From Escherichia phage vB_EcoM_PTE-Eco05: 64,000 nt of DNA. A model generated the notes under the pieces. The model made no database searches. It worked only from the letters and a program-made list of their open reading frames with translations, and was not told the origin of the DNA. Of the stretch, positions 20,346 to 45,154 are shown in pieces (position 1 is the stretch's first letter; every line of letters begins with the position of its first letter). The stretch lies in sequence record PQ306573.1. One strand, written 5' to 3'. The translations under genes and the position numbers were made by a program.

Positions 20346-20819
20346 ATGCTATTATCAGGCGCAAAATATAAAGAAGAAAAACAAAAATTTTATGATGCAC
20401 AGAATGGTAAGTGTCCTATTTGCCGCCGTGAATTAGACCCTGATGTTCAAGGTAACCATCTTGACCACGACCACGAATTAAACGGGCCAAAAGCCGGTAG
20501 AGTTCGTGGATTACTCTGTAATCTGTGCAATGCAGCAGAAGGCCAAATGAAGCATAAGTTTAATCGTTCCGGACTTAAAGGACGTGATGTCGACTACCTC
20601 GAATGGCTTGAAGCTCTTCTTGCTTATTTGAAACAAGATTATTCTGATAATAATATCCATCCTAATTTTGTTCCAGACAAAACTAAAGAGTTCTCAAGAC
20701 TAGGTAAAGAGGAAATGATGGCTGAGATGCTTCAAAGAGGATTTGAATATAATGAATCTGATACTAAAACACAATTAATAGCTTCATTCAAAAAGCAGCT
20801 TAGAAAGAGTTTAAAATGA
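20346..20819 (+). CDS. 49: endonuclease VII (Holliday junction resolvase)
   Basis: 157 aa near-identical to T4 gp49 (CPICRRELDP...HDHELNGPKAG). Confidence 0.95.
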   Translation: MLLSGAKYKEEKQKFYDAQNGKCPICRRELDPDVQGNHLDHDHELNGPKAGRVRGLLCNLCNAAEGQMKHKFNRSGLKGRDVDYLEWLEALLAYLKQDYSDNNIHPNFVPDKTKEFSRLGKEEMMAEMLQRGFEYNESDTKTQLIASFKKQLRKSLK

Positions 20820-22633
20820 AAATTGAAAAAGAAATTGAAGGACTGATTCATAAAACTAATAAAGACCTTTTAAACGAGAATGCTAATAAAGATTCTCGTG
20901 TTTTTCCAACTCAACGGGACCTTATGGCTGGTATTGTGTCTAAGCACATTGCCAAAAATATGGTCCCGTCTTTTATTATGAATGCGCATGAAAGCGGAAT
21001 CATTCACATGCATGATATTGATTATTCTCCTGCTCTTCCATTTACTAATTGTTGTTTAGTAGATTTAAAAGGAATGCTTGAGAATGGATTTAAATTAGGC
21101 AATGCTCAAATTGAAACGCCTAAATCGATTGGTGTTGCTACTGCAATTATGGCACAAATTACTGCACAAGTTGCTTCACACCAGTATGGCGGAACTACAT
21201 TTGCGAATGTAGATAAAGTACTTTCTCCTTATGTTAAACGCACCTATGCAAAACATATTGAGGATGCAGAAAAATGGCAAATCGCTGATGCGTTGAATTA
21301 TGCTCAATCTAAAACAGAAAAAGACGTATACGATGCATTCCAAGCTTACGAATATGAAGTAAATACTCTCTTTAGTTCAAACGGGCAAACACCTTTTGTA
21401 ACAATTACATTTGGTACAGGAACTGACTGGACTGAACGAATGATTCAGAAAGCAATTCTGAAAAATCGTATTAAAGGTCTTGGTCGTGATGGGATAACTC
21501 CTATTTTTCCTAAACTTGTTATGTTTGTTGAAGAAGGTGTTAATCTTTATAAAGATGATCCGAACTATGATATTAAACAACTTGCGTTAGAATGTGCAAG
21601 CAAAAGAATGTATCCTGACATTATTTCGGTTAAGAATAATAAAGCTATTACCGGTTCTTCAGTTCCTGTTTCTCCGATGGGTTGTCGTAGTTTCTTGAGC
21701 GTATGGAAAGATTCGACTGGTAATGAAATTCTTGATGGACGTAATAATCTTGGTGTTGTAACACTGAATCTTCCTCGCATCGCGTTAGATTCTTATATTG
21801 GAACACAGTTCAATGAACAGAAATTTGTTGAGCTATTTAACGAACGAATGGACCTGTGTTTTGAAGCCTTGATGTGTAGAATTAGTTCTTTAAAGGGTGT
21901 TAAAGCTACTGTTGCTCCTATTCTTTACCAAGAAGGTGCATTCGGTGTTCGTCTTAAACCCGATGACGATATAATTGAGTTATTTAAAAACGGTAGAAGT
22001 TCAGTTTCCCTAGGATACATTGGTATTCACGAATTGAATATTCTTGTCGGTCGTGATATTGGACGAGAAATTTTGACTAAAATGAATGCTCATCTTAAAC
22101 AGTGGACTGAAAGAACTGGATTTGCTTTTAGTTTATATTCTACTCCTGCTGAAAACCTTTGTTATCGCTTCTGTAAACTTGATACAGAAAAATATGGAAG
22201 CGTAAAAGATGTTACCGATAAAGGTTGGTACACTAATAGTTTCCATGTTTCAGTAGAAGAAAATATTACTCCGTTTGAAAAGATTTCTCGTGAAGCACCA
22301 TATCATTTCATTGCGACCGGCGGTCACATTTCTTATGTTGAACTTCCTGATATGAAAAATAACTTAAAGGGCCTTGAGGCTGTATGGGATTATGCTGCAC
22401 AACATTTAGATTATTTTGGTGTTAACATGCCGGTAGATAAATGTTTTACATGTGGAAGTACCCATGAAATGTCTCCTACCGAAAACGGATTTGTTTGTTC
22501 AGTTTGTGGAGAAAGTGATCCTAAAAAGATGAACACAATAAGAAGAACATGCGGATATCTTGGAACTCCTAGCGTTGTTCCATGGAATTTAGGTAAAATG
22601 AAAGAAATGGTAAAACGAGTAAAACATGCATAG
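20816..22633 (+). CDS. nrdD: anaerobic ribonucleoside-triphosphate reductase
   Basis: 605 aa; C-terminal Zn-ribbon and glycyl-radical motif RRTCGYLG; contiguous ORF, no intron. Confidence 0.95.
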   Translation: MKIEKEIEGLIHKTNKDLLNENANKDSRVFPTQRDLMAGIVSKHIAKNMVPSFIMNAHESGIIHMHDIDYSPALPFTNCCLVDLKGMLENGFKLGNAQIETPKSIGVATAIMAQITAQVASHQYGGTTFANVDKVLSPYVKRTYAKHIEDAEKWQIADALNYAQSKTEKDVYDAFQAYEYEVNTLFSSNGQTPFVTITFGTGTDWTERMIQKAILKNRIKGLGRDGITPIFPKLVMFVEEGVNLYKDDPNYDIKQLALECASKRMYPDIISVKNNKAITGSSVPVSPMGCRSFLSVWKDSTGNEILDGRNNLGVVTLNLPRIALDSYIGTQFNEQKFVELFNERMDLCFEALMCRISSLKGVKATVAPILYQEGAFGVRLKPDDDIIELFKNGRSSVSLGYIGIHELNILVGRDIGREILTKMNAHLKQWTERTGFAFSLYSTPAENLCYRFCKLDTEKYGSVKDVTDKGWYTNSFHVSVEENITPFEKISREAPYHFIATGGHISYVELPDMKNNLKGLEAVWDYAAQHLDYFGVNMPVDKCFTCGSTHEMSPTENGFVCSVCGESDPKKMNTIRRTCGYLGTPSVVPWNLGKMKEMVKRVKHA

Positions 22634-34580: not shown

Positions 34581-37292
34581 ATGAAAGAATTTTACTTAAC
34601 GGTTGAACAGATTGGTGATTCAATTTTTGAACGTTACATCGATTCTAATGGCCGTGAACGTACTCGTGAAGTAGAATATAAACCATCACTGTTTGCTCAT
34701 TGTCCAGAAAGTCAGGCTACGAAATATTTCGATATCTACGGTAAGCCGTGTACTCGTAAGTTGTTCGCTAATATGCGTGCTGCCTCCCAATGGATTAAAC
34801 GCATGGAAGATATCGGACTTGAAGCACTTGGCATGGACGATTTCAAATTGGCGTATTTGACTGACACTTATAACTATGAAATCAAATACGACCATACAAA
34901 AATTCGTGTGGCTAACTTCGACATCGAAGTAACATCTCCGGACGGGTTCCCTGAGCCGTCACAAGCAAAACATCCGATTGATGCTATCACCCATTATGAC
35001 TCAATTGACGACAGGTTCTACGTATTTGATCTATTGAATTCTCCATATGGTAATGTAGAAGAATGGTCTATTGAAATCGCTGCTAAGCTTCAAGAACAAG
35101 GCGGTGATGAAGTTCCATCCGAAATTATCGATAAAATCATTTATATGCCGTTCGATAACGAAAAAGAATTGTTGATGGAATATCTCAACTTCTGGCAACA
35201 GAAAACTCCTGTCATTTTGACTGGATGGAACGTTGAGTCATTTGATATTCCATATGTGTATAACCGAATCAAGAATATTTTTGGCGAATCTACTGCGAAA
35301 CGTTTATCACCACATCGTAAAACTCGTGTTAAAGTTATCGAAAACATGTATGGTTCTCGTGAAATCATTACATTGTTCGGTATCTCTGTTCTTGATTACA
35401 TTGACCTTTACAAAAAATTCTCTTTTACCAATCAACCGTCGTATTCTCTGGATTACATTTCAGAATTTGAATTGAACGTCGGTAAACTGAAATACGACGG
35501 CCCTATTTCTAAGCTTCGTGAAAGCAATCACCAACGATATATTTCTTATAACATTATCGACGTGTATCGTGTATTGCAAATTGATGCTAAGCGTCAGTTC
35601 ATCAACTTGAGTTTGGACATGGGTTATTATGCTAAGATACAGATTCAATCTGTGTTTAGCCCAATTAAAACATGGGATGCTATTATCTTTAATAGCCTTA
35701 AAGAGCAGAACAAGGTGATTCCACAAGGTCGTTCTCACCCGGTTCAACCTTATCCTGGCGCTTTTGTTAAGGAACCTATTCCAAATCGATACAAATATGT
35801 AATGAGTTTCGACCTTACATCTCTGTATCCAAGTATTATTCGCCAAGTGAATATTAGCCCGGAAACAATAGCAGGAACGTTTAAAGTAGCTCCACTGCAT
35901 GATTATATTAACGCAATCGCTGAACGTCCTTCAGATGTGTACAGTTGTTCTCCTAACGGCATGATGTATTATAAAGACCGTGATGGTGTAGTTCCAACTG
36001 AAATCACTAAGGTCTTTAATCAACGTAAAGAACATAAAGGTTACATGCTTGCAGCTCAACGTAATGGTGAAATAATTAAAGAGGCCTTACATAATCCTAA
36101 TCTTTCTGTTGACGAACCATTAGATGTTGATTATCGTTTCGACTTCAGTGATGAGATTAAAGAAAAGATTAAAAAGTTGTCTGCTAAATCTCTTAATGAA
36201 ATGTTGTTTAGAGCTCAACGTACTGAAGTTGCAGGTATGACTGCACAGATTAACCGTAAATTGCTCATCAACTCACTTTATGGTGCACTCGGCAACGTTT
36301 GGTTCCGTTATTACGATTTGCGTAATGCTACTGCAATCACAACATTTGGTCAAATGGCTTTACAGTGGATTGAACGTAAAGTTAATGAATATCTGAATGA
36401 AGTTTGTGGTACAGAAGGTGAAGCTTTCGTTCTTTATGGTGATACAGACTCTATTTACGTATCTGCTGATAAAATTATCGATAAGGTTGGTGAATCTAAA
36501 TTCCGTGATACCAACCATTGGGTAGACTTCTTAGATAAGTTTGCACGTGAACGTATGGAACCAGCTATTGATAGAGGTTTCCGTGAAATGTGTGAATACA
36601 TGAACAATAAACAACACTTAATGTTCATGGACCGAGAAGCTATCGCTGGGCCTCCGCTTGGTTCTAAAGGTATTGGCGGATTTTGGACTGGTAAGAAACG
36701 TTATGCATTAAACGTGTGGGATATGGAAGGTACTCGTTACGCTGAGCCTAAACTCAAAATCATGGGTCTAGAGACTCAGAAATCTTCGACTCCTAAAGCA
36801 GTACAGAAAGCTCTTAAAGAATGTATTCGTCGTATGCTTCAAGAAGGTGAAGAATCATTACAAGAATATTTTAAAGAGTTTGAAAAAGAATTCCGTCAAT
36901 TGAATTATATTAGCATCGCGTCGGTATCTTCTGCGAATAACATTGCTAAATACGACGTAGGTGGATTCCCGGGTCCTAAATGCCCGTTCCATATTCGTGG
37001 AATTCTGACGTATAACCGAGCTATCAAAGGTAATATTGATGCACCACAAGTTGTAGAAGGTGAAAAAGTATATGTTCTGCCTTTACGTGAAGGAAACCCA
37101 TTCGGTGATAAATGTATCGCATGGCCTTCTGGTACTGAAATCACAGATTTAATTAAAGACGATGTACTTCATTGGATGGACTACACTGTTCTCCTTGAGA
37201 AGACATTTATTAAACCGCTTGAAGGATTCACATCAGCAGCTAAACTCGATTACGAGAAGAAAGCATCTCTGTTCGATATGTTTGATTTTTGA
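34581..37292 (+). CDS. 43: DNA polymerase (family B)
   Basis: 903 aa; exonuclease and polymerase motifs (FDIE, YGDTDS, KILINSLYG) close to T4 gp43. Confidence 0.97.
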   Translation: MKEFYLTVEQIGDSIFERYIDSNGRERTREVEYKPSLFAHCPESQATKYFDIYGKPCTRKLFANMRAASQWIKRMEDIGLEALGMDDFKLAYLTDTYNYEIKYDHTKIRVANFDIEVTSPDGFPEPSQAKHPIDAITHYDSIDDRFYVFDLLNSPYGNVEEWSIEIAAKLQEQGGDEVPSEIIDKIIYMPFDNEKELLMEYLNFWQQKTPVILTGWNVESFDIPYVYNRIKNIFGESTAKRLSPHRKTRVKVIENMYGSREIITLFGISVLDYIDLYKKFSFTNQPSYSLDYISEFELNVGKLKYDGPISKLRESNHQRYISYNIIDVYRVLQIDAKRQFINLSLDMGYYAKIQIQSVFSPIKTWDAIIFNSLKEQNKVIPQGRSHPVQPYPGAFVKEPIPNRYKYVMSFDLTSLYPSIIRQVNISPETIAGTFKVAPLHDYINAIAERPSDVYSCSPNGMMYYKDRDGVVPTEITKVFNQRKEHKGYMLAAQRNGEIIKEALHNPNLSVDEPLDVDYRFDFSDEIKEKIKKLSAKSLNEMLFRAQRTEVAGMTAQINRKLLINSLYGALGNVWFRYYDLRNATAITTFGQMALQWIERKVNEYLNEVCGTEGEAFVLYGDTDSIYVSADKIIDKVGESKFRDTNHWVDFLDKFARERMEPAIDRGFREMCEYMNNKQHLMFMDREAIAGPPLGSKGIGGFWTGKKRYALNVWDMEGTRYAEPKLKIMGLETQKSSTPKAVQKALKECIRRMLQEGEESLQEYFKEFEKEFRQLNYISIASVSSANNIAKYDVGGFPGPKCPFHIRGILTYNRAIKGNIDAPQVVEGEKVYVLPLREGNPFGDKCIAWPSGTEITDLIKDDVLHWMDYTVLLEKTFIKPLEGFTSAAKLDYEKKASLFDMFDF

Positions 37293-37332
37293 TATAATGC
37301 CAAGGACGGCCAACTAATTAAATGAGAGAAAT

Positions 37333-37968
37333 ATGAAAACTACACCAATCACTATCGCTATTGACGCAATCGTAAAACAAGCTTCATCTCTTGCCACTAT
37401 GGCTAAAGTAATTAGTCAAAACCCTGCTCGGTATAATGCTATTCTTGAAACTCTTCGTCGCCCTGGACTGAGTAATTATGAAAGTCGTGTAATTATTACA
37501 GGTGTTGGTAAGAACGCTAATATCGCAACTAAAGCTTCCGAGACTTTTGCTTCACTAGGTATTCCTAGCATGTATTTGAACACTGGGCATTATTCTCATG
37601 GTGACGCAGGATTTATTGCACCTAATGATGTATTAGTTCACATCAGCCGTTCTGGTAAGACTGAAGAAATGATAGGTGTTGCTAAACATCTTCGTATGAT
37701 TCGTCCTCAGGTTAAACAGATTCTGTTACATTGTAACCCTGACATTCCACAAGAATACGAAGCTCTTTTTGATTATACGTTCTGTACTGGTATCGCGGTA
37801 GAAGTTGACGAGAACTCTTTAGCTCCGACAATGTCTACTACATTGTTGTTAGCGCTTATCGATACGTTCGCTATCAACCTTTCGTCTGAACGTGGATTTA
37901 CCTCTAATGATTTCCTTAAGTTCCATCCAGGCGGTGCACTAGGTGCCATGTTACGAGGCGAACAATGA
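37333..37968 (+). CDS. SIS-domain sugar-phosphate isomerase, KdsD/GutQ-like arabinose-5-phosphate isomerase
   Basis: ITGVGKNANIATKASETFASLGIPS...HGDAGFIAPNDVLVHISRSGKTEE...LAPTMSTTLLLALID...HPGGALG matches API SIS motifs; no CBS domains. Confidence 0.8.
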   Translation: MKTTPITIAIDAIVKQASSLATMAKVISQNPARYNAILETLRRPGLSNYESRVIITGVGKNANIATKASETFASLGIPSMYLNTGHYSHGDAGFIAPNDVLVHISRSGKTEEMIGVAKHLRMIRPQVKQILLHCNPDIPQEYEALFDYTFCTGIAVEVDENSLAPTMSTTLLLALIDTFAINLSSERGFTSNDFLKFHPGGALGAMLRGEQ

Positions 37969-38107
37969 AAGCAATATCAATAGGACTTTTACTATTGATG
38001 CTTGTCATGACTATCTACTGGAGCTTAACGGCTCCAGTAATGATTCCAACACTTGTAATTGGATGGATTATGATTGGACTACAAGCAAAGTATGAATGCT
38101 TTAACTA
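37965..38107 (+). CDS. small hydrophobic membrane peptide (47 aa)
   Basis: ATGA overlap with upstream stop; MKAISIGLLLLMLVMTIYW... Confidence 0.35.
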
Positions 38108-38149
38108 GAATAGTGTACAATACTCCTACTTACCAATGAGGACTTCAAC

Positions 38150-39835
38150 ATGAAAAAAGCTGTTATTCTTGGTGCTGGACTGGCAACTCGTTTGTATCCA
38201 ATAACGCATCATATTCCTAAGGTGCTTGTTAACTATAAACAAGACACTATTCTGAGCAATTTGTATACAATTTATTCTGACCTTGGCGCAGATGAAATTA
38301 TTGTAGTAGTTCATTCAAAATTTGCTGAAACTGTTCGAGCTTATTGTGAGCAAGAAGGGTTCAATGTGACTATTCGTACAGTTGATGAAGCGTATGGTTC
38401 TGCTTATGCTCTTGCTAAATTACACAAAGATTTAGACGGCCATAATGTAATTGTTAACTGGTGTGATATTATTCCCGATTTTGGTTCATGGTCTTGGAAT
38501 GTTAACGCAATCTATGTTAAGGGTGATGAATGTCGGTATAATTTCGATGGTGAAAATATCACTAATGTAGGTGAAACAGGCGGTAATGTTGTAGGAATTT
38601 ATCAGTTCAAAGACTGGGAATTCTATATGGGTTCTACCGATGAGGAAATTCATGAATACTGCAAAGGACGTGATTTCGTAGAATTCCTTTACGGCAGCAC
38701 ATTCAATAAATCAGAGCTTATGAATCTAATTGATTTAGGTGATATGCCTAAACTTGAAAAGGCCCATGAAGTTCGTGAACTGAACCGTAGTTTTAATGCA
38801 GTTGAAATTGGCGAAGAAACTGTAACTAAATTCGCATTAACCGAACAGGGTCGAGCTCTTCAGAAAGATGAGATTTCGTGGTATTTGAAAGTGAAATCAG
38901 ATTCAGTTCCTCAGTTAGTTTCTGTTAATGAAAATAACTTTGAAATGGAACGCATTAAAGGTAAGCCGGCATTTGAATATATTAAATCAAAATCAAGTCT
39001 TGCTCGTCCACAAATTATTGATGCAATTTTAGATGCACTGAAATTCAGCACAGACACTTATTTTGTAAGTCCTGAAACTGTTCGTCGTGATTTCACTAAA
39101 GAATTCTATACGAAAGTTATTGATCGTTGTGAAAGCATTCAACCATTGATTGATTCATTTGGTAAAATCACACATGTGAACTACACTAAGATTGGACGTC
39201 TGAAGCCAATGCTGAAACAAGCTTTAGAACACCTTATTCGTTATCATAACCGTTCTCAGGGACAGTACTCTGTTATTCATGGTGACCCGAACTTCAGTAA
39301 TACTATGATTACTGATAACGGCGAAGTCAAGTTTATCGACCCTCGTGGATATTTTGGCGAAACCAAGATTTACGGGCCAAAATTGTATGATGAAGCTAAA
39401 GTGCTTTACGCTGTTTCAGGTTATGATGAATTCAATGCTAATCCGACCTGGGGACAGTTTACTATTGATGAAACAACTTGTAATGTGACTATTAACATCA
39501 ATCCATTAGTTTACAAATATGGAAAGATGAGTTCGTTTAACGAGTATCATCATTTGGCAGTGGCAATTATCTGGATTGCATTAGGTGGTTATTTCAAGAA
39601 TAATCCACTTAAAGCGGTAGCCGCATATTATAAAGGTATGGAACTTCTGACTAAGCAATTACGTAATATGGGCCGTGTACTTCAAGACGGCTCTATTAGT
39701 TATGACGTAGCAGAACCTGTAACGGCTACTCTGATTACAAAAAATCCTGGTAAATGGGTACTAACTGATAAAGAAACTGGTGTTTCCTATCGTCCAATCG
39801 GTGGCGATATCACTCATCAATGGGAACGAATCTAA
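38150..39835 (+). CDS. bifunctional NDP-sugar pyrophosphorylase / sugar kinase fusion
   Basis: N-terminal AVILGAGLATRLYPITHHIPKVLV nucleotidyltransferase motif; C-terminal IHGDPNFSNTMI and FIDPRGYFG resemble APH/choline-kinase-fold motifs. Confidence 0.75.
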   Translation: MKKAVILGAGLATRLYPITHHIPKVLVNYKQDTILSNLYTIYSDLGADEIIVVVHSKFAETVRAYCEQEGFNVTIRTVDEAYGSAYALAKLHKDLDGHNVIVNWCDIIPDFGSWSWNVNAIYVKGDECRYNFDGENITNVGETGGNVVGIYQFKDWEFYMGSTDEEIHEYCKGRDFVEFLYGSTFNKSELMNLIDLGDMPKLEKAHEVRELNRSFNAVEIGEETVTKFALTEQGRALQKDEISWYLKVKSDSVPQLVSVNENNFEMERIKGKPAFEYIKSKSSLARPQIIDAILDALKFSTDTYFVSPETVRRDFTKEFYTKVIDRCESIQPLIDSFGKITHVNYTKIGRLKPMLKQALEHLIRYHNRSQGQYSVIHGDPNFSNTMITDNGEVKFIDPRGYFGETKIYGPKLYDEAKVLYAVSGYDEFNANPTWGQFTIDETTCNVTININPLVYKYGKMSSFNEYHHLAVAIIWIALGGYFKNNPLKAVAAYYKGMELLTKQLRNMGRVLQDGSISYDVAEPVTATLITKNPGKWVLTDKETGVSYRPIGGDITHQWERI

Positions 39836-40221
39836 TGCACCGTGTAGAAAACATGCTTAATCTTTGTTTTGATGTCGATGATTGTATAACAGAGTGGAAT
39901 AACAATCGTGATTACGTGAACTTCAAACCAGACGTCGAAATGGTGTCTGCCATTAATGCTCTGTATGATGCAGGGCATACCATAACGCTTTACACTGCTC
40001 GCGGTATGAAGTCAGTAGGTCCTGGTCGTATAGCAATTGACATTCTCCCAAGTCTGATTCAGAACTTGGCAAACATTGGCTTGAAGTACCATAATTTGCT
40101 AACACATAAACCAGTATATGATTGGATTATCGACGACAAAGCTATGCGTCCTGACGAATTCAAAGCTCTTATGAATAAAGGCGAATTCGAAACATTTAAA
40201 TCGTATAAACCGAATCTATAA
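39835..40221 (+). CDS. HAD-superfamily phosphatase-like protein
   Basis: FDVDDCIT near N-terminus (HAD motif I-like), later TARG and WIIDD. Confidence 0.55.
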   Translation: MHRVENMLNLCFDVDDCITEWNNNRDYVNFKPDVEMVSAINALYDAGHTITLYTARGMKSVGPGRIAIDILPSLIQNLANIGLKYHNLLTHKPVYDWIIDDKAMRPDEFKALMNKGEFETFKSYKPNL

Positions 40222-40269
40222 TAATTTAAGTAAGACCTGCAAAAAAACCATCGCATCAATTAACGCGAG

Positions 40270-41439
40270 ATGCAAAAAATGAATACTTTTAAAATCGGAA
40301 CGAATTTTGATTTAGCTCTTCTTGATAAAATCGTAGAGCTCAATAAAACTTATCCTAATAGCTTGATAAATGAAGTATACGGCTCTACAAGAGAAATGGC
40401 TTTTGTAGCAGCCAGACCTGATTTTAGGCTTCCTGACGTTGACAAAAAGATGTTAGAAGATTACGTTAAACGTTGTAACGAATTAGGTATTTGCTTTAAC
40501 TATACACTCAACACGATAAATCCTGGTTCAAAAAGAGAACTAGTTGAGTGGAAGAAGAAAGCTATTCAGGATTATGTTCAGTATCTTTGGTCAATAGGCG
40601 TATGGCGTATTACTATCGCTAACCCTGTTGTTATGGAAATTGTTCGTGAAGTCAATAAAGACATTGAGATTGAAGTTTCAACAATTCTACATGTCGATGC
40701 TGTAACTCAAATCAAATACTTGCATGACCAGTATAATATCAAAAAGGTCTGCTGTGGAATTCATAAGAACCGTTCAGTTTCTTTCCTGAAGCGTGCAGCA
40801 GAGTTTTGCAATAAGAACAATATAATATTTGAAGTTCTTGTAAATGAGTTCTGTTCTAATGCTGGTAAAGGGTATACAACACATTGTAGCTATCGTGACT
40901 CTTGCTATATTTTCCATAGTACTGATGTTACAGCTGATGATGCTAAATCCTTAAACGGATATCCTATGCAGCACTGTATTAAAGCTCGTGATACAGACCC
41001 ATTTAACTGGTTGAGAACTCGTTTTGTTCGTCCTCAAGATTTGAAACTTTATAATGATATTGGTATCACTCAATTCAAAGTTTCAGGACGTACAGGTAGC
41101 ACAGACTACATTTTGAAAGTTCTTGAAGCATACGCTTCTGAAAAGTTTGAAGGTAATTTGTTAGAACTGTGGAAGCCTTTAGAGACTATTTTCACTCTTG
41201 AAAACGAAACTGAGTTTTCACATACAGTAAATATTGAAACCTCTTTGTTAGATGGCTTTTTAGAAAAAAGGTGGTTCAGACATCCAGATTTCGATTGTGC
41301 TAATGAAATCTGCGGGACGACGTGTACATATTGTGAAAGATATTATAAACGTCAATTATCTAAAAACGGGTTAGCAGAAAACTCTATATCTATTATTGAT
41401 ATAACTAACTCTGATGACGCTTTGAGGTACCCGGAATGA
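40270..41439 (+). CDS. Cys-rich hypothetical protein of the sugar/modification cluster
   Basis: 389 aa; NEFCSNAGKGYTTHCSYRDSCY and C-terminal CANEICGTTCTYCERYY. Confidence 0.55.
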   Translation: MQKMNTFKIGTNFDLALLDKIVELNKTYPNSLINEVYGSTREMAFVAARPDFRLPDVDKKMLEDYVKRCNELGICFNYTLNTINPGSKRELVEWKKKAIQDYVQYLWSIGVWRITIANPVVMEIVREVNKDIEIEVSTILHVDAVTQIKYLHDQYNIKKVCCGIHKNRSVSFLKRAAEFCNKNNIIFEVLVNEFCSNAGKGYTTHCSYRDSCYIFHSTDVTADDAKSLNGYPMQHCIKARDTDPFNWLRTRFVRPQDLKLYNDIGITQFKVSGRTGSTDYILKVLEAYASEKFEGNLLELWKPLETIFTLENETEFSHTVNIETSLLDGFLEKRWFRHPDFDCANEICGTTCTYCERYYKRQLSKNGLAENSISIIDITNSDDALRYPE

Positions 41440-41675
41440 TTTCTAGAAAAACTTTTAACCACCAACTTAATGAAGAGATTTTGACTATGAAACTGAACAC
41501 TAACGAACAAATTCTTAAAAGGGCCCTGATGGGCCTGTTTGAAACTAAAGCGGCTAAAGTGATTAAAGAACCTGTTCAATTGGAATACTACGCTGATGCA
41601 TTTCTTCATAGTGTTCTTGGAAGTATCGGTGCTGAAGCTTTACGTTATATCAACATTGTCAAGAAATTCAAATAA
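41436..41675 (+). CDS. hypothetical protein
   Basis: 79-aa ORF. Confidence 0.45.
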   Translation: MISRKTFNHQLNEEILTMKLNTNEQILKRALMGLFETKAAKVIKEPVQLEYYADAFLHSVLGSIGAEALRYINIVKKFK

Positions 41676-41717
41676 GCTTTACGAATTGAGTATATAATAA
41701 ATTGTATTGAGGTAAAC

Positions 41718-42434
41718 ATGGGAAAACATAACACAATGAAATATATCAAAGCCGCAGATTTTCAAGCCGCATTTAAAGCAGTCAATCGTGAAATTTTAGA
41801 AAACCCGGAATTCGTAACTGATTCTCGTATTGGACGTTGTAATGAAATTGGGTCTATGACAGTAGTTGTTGACACTCCATCATCATTCAAAATGACCGAC
41901 CCACGTATTAACCGCATCTCTTATGAATATGCCGAAGACTTCTGGAAGTTTATGATTTCTGGTGGTACCAACGCAGAAGAAGCGTTTAAGGCATATCCTA
42001 ATGTCGCTAAATTTATTTCTAAACCAAAATCAGATGTTTTGCCGGCGAACTTCAACACTTTCTATGGTCCTCGCATTGCGGCCCAATTACCAGCTCTTCT
42101 AAAAGAACTTAAAGAGAAGCCTAACTCTCGAAGAGTTGTGTTCCAAATTCTAGAAAGTTCTGATCAGGCTTTGCTTGATTCAGACGAAACGCTTGAATAT
42201 CCATGTACTGACTCAGTGACTTATTATATCCGTGATGGTAAGCTTTATACCCACTGTCATATGCGTTCTCAGAACTGCGCTGTTGTTATGCAGTTGGATT
42301 TTTATCTCCAAGGAAAATTACTTCATTATATCGCTAACGAATGCGGTGTAGAAGTTGGTGATTATACTCATACCATGGTAAGTGCCCATGTGTTTGAACG
42401 TGATTTTGATTATGTTAAAGGATTCCTTGACTAA
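41718..42434 (+). CDS. thymidylate-synthase-fold pyrimidine hydroxymethylase (divergent dCMP hydroxymethylase-like)
   Basis: NSRRVVFQIL and YPCTDSVTYYIRDGKL...MRSQNCAVVMQLDFY align with TS/CH core motifs incl. catalytic Cys; same position as T4 gene 42. Confidence 0.65.
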   Translation: MGKHNTMKYIKAADFQAAFKAVNREILENPEFVTDSRIGRCNEIGSMTVVVDTPSSFKMTDPRINRISYEYAEDFWKFMISGGTNAEEAFKAYPNVAKFISKPKSDVLPANFNTFYGPRIAAQLPALLKELKEKPNSRRVVFQILESSDQALLDSDETLEYPCTDSVTYYIRDGKLYTHCHMRSQNCAVVMQLDFYLQGKLLHYIANECGVEVGDYTHTMVSAHVFERDFDYVKGFLD

Positions 42435-43333
42435 TGGCTATTTTCCGCGTACCAATCTTGAGTATGCGGTCTTATGAAACTGGACAGTATGCTATCCTTA
42501 AGGATGGCAACTTCCAACTTCATTTGCACCGTGCTAATCCGGGTGATGTGATTACATATCCACGTAATGCATCTGATATTAAAGAATGCGAACGTCTTTT
42601 TCCAGAATTTAAGTTTGTTCCATTATGGTATAAAGATAACGCGTATAACACTCGTAAATATTTCTGGTCTGAAAATGAATTTGTGGTTGATTCATTAATT
42701 GCTTATTATGATTGTGATTTTCTAATCACAGATATCACTGGATATGACGGCGCTTTTGATGTGGAATTCAATTTCAATATCACTGCAGACCCTAATAAAC
42801 CACGTTTTTATATTGACGAATTCTTAAAAACTGATATGTTGTCGGTTAATCGTTCACTTCAAACTACTGTGTTGAATGAACGTCAAAAAGAAGTGCTGGT
42901 TAACGCAGGTGCAGATGGTAATAAGATTATCGTAACGCAGAAAGTTATACGTCCTTCCATCATGCAGCGTCTTGTAGGTGATTTGGCTCCTATTTATCTA
43001 GATGGTATTTTTCATCCATTTCGAATTAGTGACCCGTGCTATCGTTTTGAACAAGTGGTTGAATGTGCAATTCAATTAGGCCAACCGCTTTATATAACCG
43101 ATCCAAATAATAGCTTCGACAGAAATAAGTATCCTGAAGAAGCGCTGATTCGAATTTTTAAACCAACTAAAACAGAGTACTATCAAATTCTTAAAGGGCG
43201 TCCTAAAATTCAATATTTCGAAAATCCTGAAGAAGTATTCCATCCAGGTCTTGGTGAGTTCATCTACTTTAATGCTTTAATTTCTTCGCCGTATAATATA
43301 CCTAAATATGAAGATGTCGTAATCGAGGAATAA
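42434..43333 (+). CDS. hypothetical protein (candidate DNA sugar transferase by context only)
   Basis: 299-aa ORF between hydroxymethylase and kinase; no motif recognised. Confidence 0.5.
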   Translation: MAIFRVPILSMRSYETGQYAILKDGNFQLHLHRANPGDVITYPRNASDIKECERLFPEFKFVPLWYKDNAYNTRKYFWSENEFVVDSLIAYYDCDFLITDITGYDGAFDVEFNFNITADPNKPRFYIDEFLKTDMLSVNRSLQTTVLNERQKEVLVNAGADGNKIIVTQKVIRPSIMQRLVGDLAPIYLDGIFHPFRISDPCYRFEQVVECAIQLGQPLYITDPNNSFDRNKYPEEALIRIFKPTKTEYYQILKGRPKIQYFENPEEVFHPGLGEFIYFNALISSPYNIPKYEDVVIEE

Positions 43334-43334
43334 A

Positions 43335-43883
43335 ATGGCTAAAATTATTTTAGTAGATGGCCCAGATAATGCTGGTAAAACAACTTTCATTAATGACATA
43401 ATGGAAATTAGTGAAAGATATGTAAAGATTGATTTCCCTAAACGAACAGTTGATGGGCGTTTCGATGTTAAGTCTCGAAATGAAGTTGGCTGCTTCGAAA
43501 CGATGTTGAATTATTTAGACCCTACTAAGATTTATCTGTTAGACCGTGGATATATTAGTAACTGGGTTTATGGACGTATTCGACAAGATGCGGACTCGGT
43601 TCTTGACGTTTATGAACAGGATTATGTTCGTCTTTGCCAAAACCATGATGTGTTCACAATTATTTTAACACGTAACGAAATGACTGAAAGTTTTGAAGAC
43701 GACCTTATTACTTTGTCCTCATTCGGTTTTAATACAGTCATTTCACATTTTGAAGAGTTTGCAATTCATAACAAAATCCAAACGTATCAATTACTTAATC
43801 ATGATGGTGCTAACAAAGTTATAGGATTTAATGCAAGCGAACGTAATTATTTGATTACAGAAATTATCAAATGGGCTCGTTAA
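43335..43883 (+). CDS. P-loop nucleoside-monophosphate kinase-like protein
   Basis: ILVDGPDNAGKTT Walker A and LLDRGYIS (thymidylate-kinase DR-like). Confidence 0.6.
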   Translation: MAKIILVDGPDNAGKTTFINDIMEISERYVKIDFPKRTVDGRFDVKSRNEVGCFETMLNYLDPTKIYLLDRGYISNWVYGRIRQDADSVLDVYEQDYVRLCQNHDVFTIILTRNEMTESFEDDLITLSSFGFNTVISHFEEFAIHNKIQTYQLLNHDGANKVIGFNASERNYLITEIIKWAR

Positions 43884-43981
43884 GAGCCATTTAAAGTTTT
43901 AAATGCTGTATAACCCTTAGTATATAATCATCTTATCTTTTAAACATGAGTAAAATATAATGATGCCTATGGAAAAATACA

Positions 43982-45154
43982 ATGTCTGATTTAAAATCTC
44001 GTCTGATTAAAGCTTCTACTTCTAAAATGACTGCAGACTTGACTAAGTCTAAGCTGTTTAATAATCGTGATGAAGTCCCTACTCGTATTCCGATGTTGAA
44101 TATTGCACTAGGTGGTGCACTGAATGCCGGGTTGCAATCAGGCTTAACTATTTTTGCTGCTCCTTCTAAACACTTTAAAACATTGTTTGGGCTGACCATG
44201 GTTGCAGCATATATGAAGAAATATAAAGATGCAATCTGTTTGTTTTATGACTCAGAATTCGGTGCTTCAGAATCTTATTTTCGTTCAATGGGTGTTGATT
44301 TAGACCGTGTAGTTCATACTCCGATTCAATCTGTCGAACAACTTAAAGTTGATATGACTAATCAGCTTGACGCGATTGAACGCGGTGATAAAGTTATTAT
44401 CTTTATCGATTCAATCGGTAATACTGCATCTAAGAAAGAAACCGAAGATGCGTTGAACGAGAAAGTTGTAGGTGATATGTCTCGTGCTAAGGCACTTAAA
44501 TCTCTGTTCCGCATTGTGACTCCTTATCTGACTATTAAAGATATTCCATGTGTTGCAATCAACCATACAGCAATGGAAATCGGCGGATTGTATCCTAAAG
44601 AGATTATGGGCGGTGGTACCGGTATTCTTTATTCTGCCAACACGGTATTTTTTATCTCTAAACGTCAGGTTAAAGAAGGTACAGAATTGACCGGTTATGA
44701 CTTCACGTTGAAAGCAGAAAAATCTCGTACAGTTAAAGAGAAATCTACTTTCCCAATCACGGTTAATTTTGATGGCGGTATTGACCCATTCAGTGGCTTG
44801 TTAGAAATGGCAACTGAAATTGGATTTGTTGTTAAGCCTAAAGCCGGTTGGTATGCTCGCGAATTCCTTGACGAAGAAACAGGTGAAATGATTCGTGAAG
44901 AAAAATCATGGCGTGCTAAAGCTACTGATTGTGTAGAATTCTGGGGACCTTTGTTTAAACACAAACCTTTCCGAGATGCAATTGAAACTAAATATAAACT
45001 AGGTGCTATCTCTTCTATTAAAGAAGTTGATGACGCTGTTAACGACCTTATTAATTGCAAAGCAACAACTAAAGTTCCGGTTAAAACTTCTGATGCTCCG
45101 TCTGCAGCAGATATAGAAAACGACCTTGACGAAATGGAAGATTTCGATGAATAA
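43982..45154 (+). CDS. uvsX: RecA-like recombinase
   Basis: 390 aa close to T4 UvsX (Walker A region, acidic C-terminus). Confidence 0.95.
   Translation: MSDLKSRLIKASTSKMTADLTKSKLFNNRDEVPTRIPMLNIALGGALNAGLQSGLTIFAAPSKHFKTLFGLTMVAAYMKKYKDAICLFYDSEFGASESYFRSMGVDLDRVVHTPIQSVEQLKVDMTNQLDAIERGDKVIIFIDSIGNTASKKETEDALNEKVVGDMSRAKALKSLFRIVTPYLTIKDIPCVAINHTAMEIGGLYPKEIMGGGTGILYSANTVFFISKRQVKEGTELTGYDFTLKAEKSRTVKEKSTFPITVNFDGGIDPFSGLLEMATEIGFVVKPKAGWYAREFLDEETGEMIREEKSWRAKATDCVEFWGPLFKHKPFRDAIETKYKLGAISSIKEVDDAVNDLINCKATTKVPVKTSDAPSAADIENDLDEMEDFDE

Follow-up and report, generated by a model that had tools for sequence, protein, structure and literature searches.

A probable glycosyltransferase and nucleotide kinase pair in the arabinosyl-5-hydroxycytosine DNA hypermodification cluster of an Escherichia phage

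Directly downstream of a thymidylate synthase (TS) homologue, Escherichia phage vB_EcoM_PTE-Eco05 (PQ306573.1; the whole stretch of 64,000 nucleotides (nt) analysed here is called the window) carries two adjacent open reading frames (ORFs) of 299 and 182 amino acids (aa), which on balance probably encode the glycosyltransferase and the nucleotide kinase of the Mosigvirus module for arabinosyl-5-hydroxycytosine DNA hypermodification. The pair as such is already known, being near-identical to gp46:47 and gp45 of phage RB69, whose pathway was published in 2025-2026; new here are the contiguity of the synthase, transferase and kinase genes, the kinship of gp215 of Rhizobium phage RL38J1 with the transferase family, and the existence of transferase-kinase fusions in both orders. 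The ORF listing places both frames on the plus strand exactly where a preliminary description of this DNA had put them (Table 1), and they are genuine genes rather than chance frames, since homologues occur in several hundred phage records and both proteins match PHROG families, phrog_3891 (unknown function, E=1e-155) for the 299-aa protein and phrog_761 ('thymidylate kinase', E=2e-45) for the 182-aa protein. In tblastn searches the transferase family was found in 348 phage records, with hosts that include Escherichia, Acinetobacter, Klebsiella, Shigella, Serratia, Enterobacter, Proteus and Yersinia, and the kinase in 343, with the same host genera. The last base of the TS homologue gene (42434) overlaps the transferase start by 1 nt (TAATG) and a 1-base gap separates the transferase stop from the kinase ATG (TAAAATG); the three genes are spaced for coupled translation. 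Promoter and terminator scans of 37000-44300 gave sites no more frequent than in shuffled sequence, and an Rfam scan of the whole window at the gathering threshold returned no family, group I introns included.

The phage is a Mosigvirus. A megablast search with 38000-44000 returned 234 phage records, 151 of them covering at least 80% of the query, and the closest, Shigella phage JK45, is 99.5% identical across all of it. Over 42400-43900 the alignment with RB69 has about 98% nt identity and matching neighbours, which places the 299-aa protein in the RB69 gp46:47 orthologous group, and the RB69 order is that of the window: gp55 (arabinose-5-phosphate isomerase), gp53/52, gp51, gp50 (U32), gp49, gp48 (TS homologue), gp47, gp46, gp45 ('thymidylate kinase') and uvsX. 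The only material difference between the two pairs is that the transferase gene of the window is intact. In the RB69 reference (NC_004928) an extra T after window position 42977 (42977/42978) divides it into ORF047c (182 aa) and ORF046c (116 aa); the gene is undivided in the window and, as full-length tblastn matches show, in many related genomes. The BFVD models of the two RB69 products each superpose on one half of the 299-aa model (TMt 0.98), and the split has been attributed to a sequencing error (Lee et al., NAR 2026, PMC13326640). Equivalents of RB69 gp46:47 and gp45 are gp79/gp78 of phage DLP3 and the Afh cluster of phage HY126.

The nucleotide on which this module works can be read from the neighbouring TS homologue. 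The 238-aa protein is near-identical to the 238-aa proteins of PDB 9iqc, 9ir2 and 9iqu (E=7.9e-161), which are probably the HY126 enzyme, and the T4 gp42 structure is not among its best 60 PDB sequence matches. A 5-hydroxy-dCMP (5hodCMP) synthase is recognized by Cys146, N177D, L143D/E and the diagnostic D169N in E. coli ThyA numbering; homologues that methylate or hydroxymethylate keep Asp at position 169 (PMC13326640). In an alignment with E. coli ThyA, whose reference sequence was checked against the PDB, the window protein has the entire signature, with C146, L143E, D169N and N177D (E-Y-P-C; R-S-Q-N....D), and the RSxN motif is also found in the TS homologues of Shewanella phage Thanatos, RL38J1 and the metagenomic contigs L001, L006, L007 and L008. 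For the RB69 orthologue gp48 the conversion of dCMP to 5hodCMP with O2 and flavin has been shown experimentally, and RB69 DNA has been found by nuclear magnetic resonance and mass spectrometry to carry beta-D-arabinofuranosyl (Araf)-(1-3)-alpha-D-Araf, ether-linked to C5 of 5-hydroxydeoxycytidine (5hodC) with no methylene (PMC13326640). The preliminary description had called this neighbour a hydroxymethylase and had taken hydroxymethyl-dCMP (hm-dCMP) for the relevant nucleotide, and on both points it has to be corrected: Asn at ThyA-169 and the match to 9iqc make the protein a 5hodCMP synthase, the RB69 chemistry gives D-arabinofuranose as the sugar, and because the neighbour is a 5hodCMP synthase the substrate is 5hodCMP rather than hm-dCMP.

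The 299-aa protein, proposed in the preliminary description as the best positional candidate for the DNA sugar transferase, is predicted with high confidence to adopt a GT-B glycosyltransferase fold, with two Rossmann-like beta/alpha/beta domains and an interdomain cleft, and this together with its orthology to RB69 gp46:47 upholds the proposal. The same fold was assigned to RB69 gp46:47 by Lee et al., who named it putative arabinosyltransferase 1 (PMC13326640). The nearest structural matches of the model are retaining GT4-type enzymes, with scores of 17.6 for sucrose-phosphate synthase (6kih), 16.7 for BshA (6n1x) and 16.0 for PimA (2gej), as compared with 14.5 for the phage HY126 transferase (9iqz) and 13.1 for T4 alpha-glucosyltransferase (1y6f). 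Bacterial enzymes of this type (PimA, BshA, MshA, sucrose-phosphate synthase, WaaG) share the fold with the window protein at 7-12% identity and are 60-100 residues longer. That it has no recognisable motif, as had been stated, is true at the level of sequence: no match was found in Pfam (including Glycos_transf_1 and Glyco_transf_4), in NCBIfam or, with single-sequence phmmer, among PDB sequences, and an hmmsearch of PDB sequences with a profile of 57 family members gave no glycosyltransferase at E<=10. Alignment by hhalign with the GT4-like family of RB69 gp3, whose profile is thin (5 proteins), gave a probability of 0.1%. Membership of the sequence family CAZy GT4 / Glycos_transf_1 was therefore rejected for want of any profile similarity, and the family, which comprises 230 clusters at E<=1e-3 in an exhaustive HMMER scan of 1.84 billion representatives, is a sequence orphan identified by its predicted fold alone. 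The segment H270-P271-G272..E275 is a candidate counterpart of the EX7E-type donor-binding motif. The isoelectric point (5.06; family median 5.2), examined for any bearing on whether the acceptor is DNA or a small molecule, was dropped as non-discriminating.

Several observations point to this protein as the first, base-proximal transferase: it is more widely spread than the second one, it has an ortholog in a phage with a single transferase, and RL38J1 gp215 is its kin. The gp3-type second transferase, whose gene enters the window at its far end and is 98% identical to RB69ORF003c in tblastn across the first 211 aa, was found in 211 phage records, from Escherichia, Shigella and Acinetobacter phages only, and Acinetobacter phage records among the matches listed have two copies. 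Thanatos has mono-arabinosylated DNA and encodes a single ara-transferase (PMC13326640 section 26), and its TS-adjacent protein TH1_063 (L003 17460-18362) is 48.5% identical to the 299-aa protein. RL38J1 gp215, the proposed base-proximal galactosyltransferase of the Rhizobium phage (Lee et al., PMC13326640), is another member of this family by profile (E=9e-27), with the motifs MRSYETG..Y....DGN and FPYRLTD..Y in common. The family is thus not limited to arabinose, and the feature that its members share would be the 5-hydroxycytosine (5hoC) acceptor rather than the sugar. For the window protein, UDP-arabinofuranose (UDP-Araf) is the putative donor, because genes for an isomerase, a kinase/uridylyltransferase and a phosphatase lie upstream and because UDP-Araf is the donor in the reaction of DLP3 gp76+gp77 (PMC13326640); members in RL38J1 and in contigs L006 and L007 probably use other donors.

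The T4 alpha- and beta-glucosyltransferases likewise decorate a C5-oxygenated cytosine, but they are larger (351-400 aa), have no sequence similarity to the window transferase, and act on the hydroxymethyl group of hydroxymethylcytosine (hmC) with host UDP-glucose, whereas the putative acceptor and donor here are a ring-attached 5-OH and a UDP-Araf made by the phage itself. Unlike the T4 enzymes, moreover, transferases of the window type are always accompanied by a thymidylate-kinase-like kinase, to which they are sometimes fused.

This kinase, the 182-aa protein, is predicted to have the fold of thymidylate kinase (Tmk) with a P-loop and a DR(Y/H) motif, and the best matches to its model are thymidylate kinases. 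Both motifs singled out in the preliminary description are present in the translation, GPDNAGKTT at residues 9-17 and DRGYIS at residues 70-75; the P-loop and the DR motif are conserved in the family alignment, and the agreement of PHROG and predicted fold bears out the thymidylate-kinase-like reading. The orthologue RB69 gp45 is labelled 'nucleotide kinase' in PMC13326640. Compared with Tmk as curated in PF02223 and TIGR00041 the window kinase has the fold and motifs but is shorter and falls below the cut-offs, with no PF02223 match at E<=0.1 and 16 bits against TIGR00041, where 83 are needed. Its lid segment, modelled with low confidence, is acidic (invariant F120, D122, D123). Identity with the T4 gp1-type dNMP kinases was rejected, as no homology to T4 gp1 or RB69 gp159 was found; the likeness is that these too are phage-encoded P-loop kinases serving a modified-dCMP pathway. 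Since the 182-aa family occurs only within 5-hydroxycytosine modification modules, dTMP is disfavoured as substrate, and the context argues for a modified deoxycytidylate. A Tmk-like kinase is kept wherever the transferase occurs, including RB69, DLP3 and RL38J1, all of which encode a gp1-type kinase as well (RB69 gp159; DLP3 gp169, PMC13326640; RL38J1 gp219). RB69 gp159 converts 5hodCMP to 5hodCDP, and E. coli that co-expresses gp48 and gp159 has 5hodC in its DNA (PMC13326640 section 24).

The 5hodCMP-type synthase, the transferase and the Tmk-like kinase are contiguous in every lineage examined, that is, in Straboviridae, in Pootjesviridae (RL38J1) and in four metagenomic phage contigs. The order synthase, transferase, kinase of the window recurs in Thanatos and RL38J1, in the 356-kb contig L001, where one ORF is inserted after the synthase and the transferase and kinase genes overlap by 22 nt, and in contigs L006 and L007, where a Flavodoxin_2 gene precedes the three and no sugar-nucleotide genes lie within 7 kb; contig L008 has synthase, kinase, transferase, and Dhakavirus WG01 kinase, synthase, transferase. 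In RL38J1, whose DNA carries galactosyl/glucosyl-5-hydroxycytosine, the corresponding genes are gp216, gp215 and gp214; the proposed base-proximal sugar there is galactose, as against arabinose for the window, and the gp214 kinase is too diverged to be detected directly by the 182-aa family profile. A minimal four-gene cassette of Flavodoxin_2 (FMN-reductase-like), synthase, transferase and kinase is seen at L006 5739-8594, L007 5715-8555 and L001 1-523; the Flavodoxin_2-like protein may supply reduced flavin to a flavin-dependent hydroxylase, and the phages of the L006 and L007 cassettes presumably use a host UDP-sugar.

Among the best 150 family members of the exhaustive search, seven are transferase-kinase fusions (P0247, P0256, P0266, P0270, P0274, P0283, P0291) and one, P0268, found on two independent contigs, has the reverse order. 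The fused kinase domain has the P-loop EGFDRIGKD and weak Pfam Thymidylate_kin matches, and aligns with the 182-aa family by hhalign at 95.6% (E=1.3e-8, 134 columns). A hidden Markov model of the fused kinases finds RL38J1 gp214 (E=1e-11) and the window kinase (1e-5), moderate evidence given a test set of about 30 sequences; a profile of close 182-aa homologues detected neither gp214 nor the fused domains. Seven further members (P0172, P0181, P0183, P0196, P0201, P0233, P0259) have a KdsC-like HAD phosphatase domain of some 185 aa N-terminal to the transferase, a second type of fusion, which ties the transferase to sugar-phosphate processing. As phosphatase and transferase catalyse non-consecutive steps, fusion proves a shared pathway and not consecutive steps.

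The scheme we favour joins the ORFs, predicted folds, RB69 orthology, synthase signature, three-gene contiguity and fusion proteins described here to the 5hodCMP synthesis, DNA chemistry and UDP-Araf synthesis shown in the literature (PMC13326640). The TS homologue would convert dCMP to 5hodCMP, as its RB69 orthologue does, and the Tmk-like kinase, with about an even chance, would phosphorylate this to 5hodCDP and so feed the triphosphate pool from which the 5-hydroxycytosine nucleotide would be incorporated into DNA instead of dCTP. The upstream isomerase, bifunctional kinase/uridylyltransferase and phosphatase would make UDP-Araf, from which the transferase would set D-Araf, in alpha linkage, on the 5-OH of 5-hydroxycytosine as the first sugar, with newly replicated DNA as the somewhat favoured acceptor; the gp3-type transferase would then add the second arabinose. 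Several points weigh against this scheme. Three DLP3 transferases were singly inactive on 5hoC DNA with UDP-Araf or UDP-arabinopyranose, and the data of Lee et al. cannot separate nucleotide from DNA as the acceptor of the first sugar (PMC13326640 section 26). Because gp159 already makes 5hodCDP, a second 5hodCMP kinase looks redundant. For Thanatos TH1_063 there is a report of UDP-xylose pyrophosphorylase activity (PMC12838424 section 10), none of the curated glycosyltransferase families resembles the transferase family in sequence (Pfam, NCBIfam, PDB, gp3 profile), and arabinosyl transfer by the 299-aa protein or its orthologues is a prediction.

The strongest alternative, which we nevertheless regard as unlikely, places the first glycosylation before replication: the transferase would arabinosylate 5hodCMP or its di- or triphosphate, the kinase would be dedicated to arabinosyl-5-O-dCMP, the polymerase would use a glycosylated dCTP analogue, and later sugars would be added on DNA. 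It would resolve the kinase redundancy, because a gp1-type kinase would not take arabinosyl-5-O-dCMP, and it fits the near one-to-one occurrence of kinase and transferase (343 against 348 phage records) even beside a gp1-type dNMP kinase, the fusions of the two in at least eight cluster representatives and both domain orders, and the overlapping or abutting genes in the window, Thanatos, L001, L006 and L007. The inactivity of single DLP3 transferases on 5hoC DNA can be read in the same way, and no unglycosylated 5hodC has been reported in virion DNA (PMC13326640 section 22). Against it stands the evidence that 5hodCTP is made and polymerisable, as gp48 and gp159 suffice in E. coli (PMC13326640 section 24). 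The genomic arguments are also less compelling than they seem, in that HAD phosphatase-transferase fusions join non-consecutive enzymes, T4 beta-gt adjoins gene 42 yet its product acts on DNA, and the gene order varies, being kinase-synthase-transferase in Dhakavirus and synthase-kinase-transferase in L008. In DNA, 5-hydroxycytosine causes mutations and is attacked by the base-excision glycosylases of the host, and hiding it would be advantageous; characterised phage DNA glycosylations, such as T-even glucosylation, act after replication, however. We know of no phage for which base glycosylation before replication has been described, and to argue from strict pairing and fusions to a first sugar on the free nucleotide, a dedicated glycosyl-dNMP kinase and a polymerase that incorporates the glycosylated dCTP analogue seems to us a shade more doubtful still.

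It is considerably less probable that the kinase serves the donor side, re-phosphorylating the UDP/UMP released by the transferase and thereby easing product inhibition and regenerating UTP for the UDP-arabinose pyrophosphorylase. The kinase adjoins the 5hodCMP synthase as often as the transferase, its predicted fold matches and its PHROG are those of thymidylate kinases, which phosphorylate nucleoside monophosphates, and the host Ndk and Pyr kinases already handle uridine nucleotides. Very improbable, too, is that the 299-aa protein activates the sugar as a UDP-pentose pyrophosphorylase instead of transferring it, although purified TH1_063, at 48.5% identity, has been reported to form UDP-xylose from UTP and xylose-1-phosphate, as followed by liquid chromatography-tandem mass spectrometry (PMC12838424 section 10). 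The predicted fold is GT-B and not that of a nucleotidyltransferase, the 561-aa protein of the cluster already has a nucleotidyltransferase domain and its AfhE equivalent is a UDP-arabinose pyrophosphorylase, and the family is present in cassettes without nearby sugar-activation genes (L006, L007). We consider the pyrophosphorylase claim for TH1_063 incompatible with the predicted GT-B fold and the separate nucleotidyltransferase of the cluster; a host UDP-sugar pyrophosphorylase carried through the purification, or the GT-B reaction run in reverse (sugar-1-phosphate + UDP), might explain the activity. A pathway in the manner of T4, with hm-dCMP made by a dCMP hydroxymethylase, phosphorylated by the kinase and, once in DNA, glycosylated as hmC by the 299-aa protein, would suit the T4-like gene order (42, beta-gt, uvsX) and the original report of arabinosyl-hmC in RB69 DNA (PMC6024577), but it is refuted by the signature residues of the 238-aa protein (D169N, near-identity to 9iqc) and by the published RB69 chemistry, with arabinose on C5 via oxygen, no methylene, and an orthologue making 5hodCMP with O2 (PMC13326640), the hmC assignment having been termed erroneous (PMC13390438).

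The favoured scheme, with a Tmk-like kinase and an arabinosyltransferase behind a 5hodCMP synthase, also draws on the genes upstream (Table 1). Production of UDP-Araf has been assigned to the RB69 gp52:53 / AfhE equivalent, and HY126 AfhE has been shown to be a UDP-arabinose pyrophosphorylase (cited in PMC13326640 section 27); the corresponding 561-aa protein of the window has Pfam NTP_transferase in its N-terminal part and weak APH-type kinase matches in its C-terminal part. A 47-aa hydrophobic ORF (37965-38108) lies between the isomerase and the bifunctional uridylyltransferase genes, and its position is conserved in RB69 (ORF054c), LC53 and KLB31, where it is annotated with transmembrane segment(s).

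Table 1. Genes of the arabinosylation cluster and the distant second transferase in the window.
Feature	Coordinates	Strand	Basis or remark
211-aa arabinose-5-phosphate isomerase homologue (RB69 gp55 orthologue)	37333..37968	+	ORF; JK45/RB69 annotations
561-aa bifunctional sugar-1-phosphate nucleotidyltransferase + kinase (RB69 gp52:53 / HY126 AfhE equivalent)	38150..39835	+	
HAD-like phosphatase (RB69 gp51 / HY126 AfhF equivalent)	39820..40221	+	phrog_1238; JK45 start at about 39835; role from PMC13326640
389-aa peptidase-U32-family protein (RB69 gp50 orthologue)	40270..41439	+	Pfam Peptidase_U32 E=7e-11; weak UbiU match
79-aa ORF (RB69ORF049c orthologue)	41436..41675	+	phrog_8601
238-aa TS homologue, 5-hydroxy-dCMP synthase (RB69 gp48 orthologue)	41718..42434	+	Pfam Thymidylat_synt; PDB 9iqc; signature residues
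299-aa ORF, predicted GT-B glycosyltransferase (proposed first transferase)	42434..43333	+	ATG start; intact RB69 gp46:47 orthologue
182-aa ORF, thymidylate-kinase-like P-loop nucleotide kinase	43335..43883	+	ATG start; RB69 gp45 orthologue
Second glycosyltransferase (RB69 gp3 orthologue, 366 aa), N-terminal 211 aa	63367..64000	+	continues past window end

The U32 protein, an accessory member of the cluster, is also its most conserved protein, with 79% identity to the Thanatos orthologue as compared with 49% for the transferase. The 221 phage records in which it was found all have it at no less than 80% identity; among the matches listed the host genera are those of Enterobacterales and Shewanella, and none of the 57 transferase-carrying Acinetobacter phages appears. 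Known U32 proteins, among them RlhA, TrhP and UbiU/V, are hydroxylases that depend on prephenate and need no O2, and the product of RlhA is 5-hydroxycytidine in rRNA; by analogy, the phage protein could provide an anaerobic route to 5-hydroxycytosine beside the O2-dependent synthase. A chorismate mutase gene lies directly downstream of U32 in LC53, KLB31 and Thanatos (L012 6158-6499, L013 6155-6391 and L003 20060-20317, respectively), the LC53 and KLB31 copies passing Pfam CM_2 with 44.6 and 38.5 bits (cut-off 27). The 79-aa ORF at this place in the window was rejected as a chorismate mutase, having no Pfam match even at E<=10 and 17-23% identity to its positional counterparts. Transferase-kinase fusions of either order have a close U32 homologue as neighbour (E=8e-117 and 1e-110 to that of the window) at L015 7001-10276, L016 503-3778 and L017 5412-11153, and no TS homologue was found within the 12-15 kb examined around two of these loci, a hint that in these phages U32 might stand in for the TS-type hydroxylase. 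The Dhakavirus WG01 cluster lacks U32, and in the work of Lee et al. gp50 bears the label 'sugar or heterocycle reductase' (PMC13326640), both of which count against a hydroxylase role; a search of the available literature library found no paper linking phage U32 with anaerobic 5-hydroxycytosine.

Two further observations concern phage JK45. Its taxonomy line (NC_054940.1) reads Tequatrovirus, yet it carries the full Mosigvirus-type arabinosylation cluster, and the genus assignment looks inconsistent. At 20816-22633 the window has an undivided 605-aa ORF, roughly where the anaerobic ribonucleotide reductase of JK45 is interrupted by an I-TevII-type homing endonuclease, and the window phage seems to be without this insertion.

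The arabinosylation pathway to which the transferase and kinase would belong protects phage DNA against many restriction enzymes and against DNA-targeting CRISPR systems, and it is relevant to the choice of therapeutic phages. The comparative results sharpen the question of which molecule is the first acceptor of the sugar and of why the kinase is retained beside the transferase. If the first glycosylation did turn out to be pre-replicative, the accepted order of phage DNA hypermodification would change, and enzymes for making glycosylated dNTPs would come within reach.

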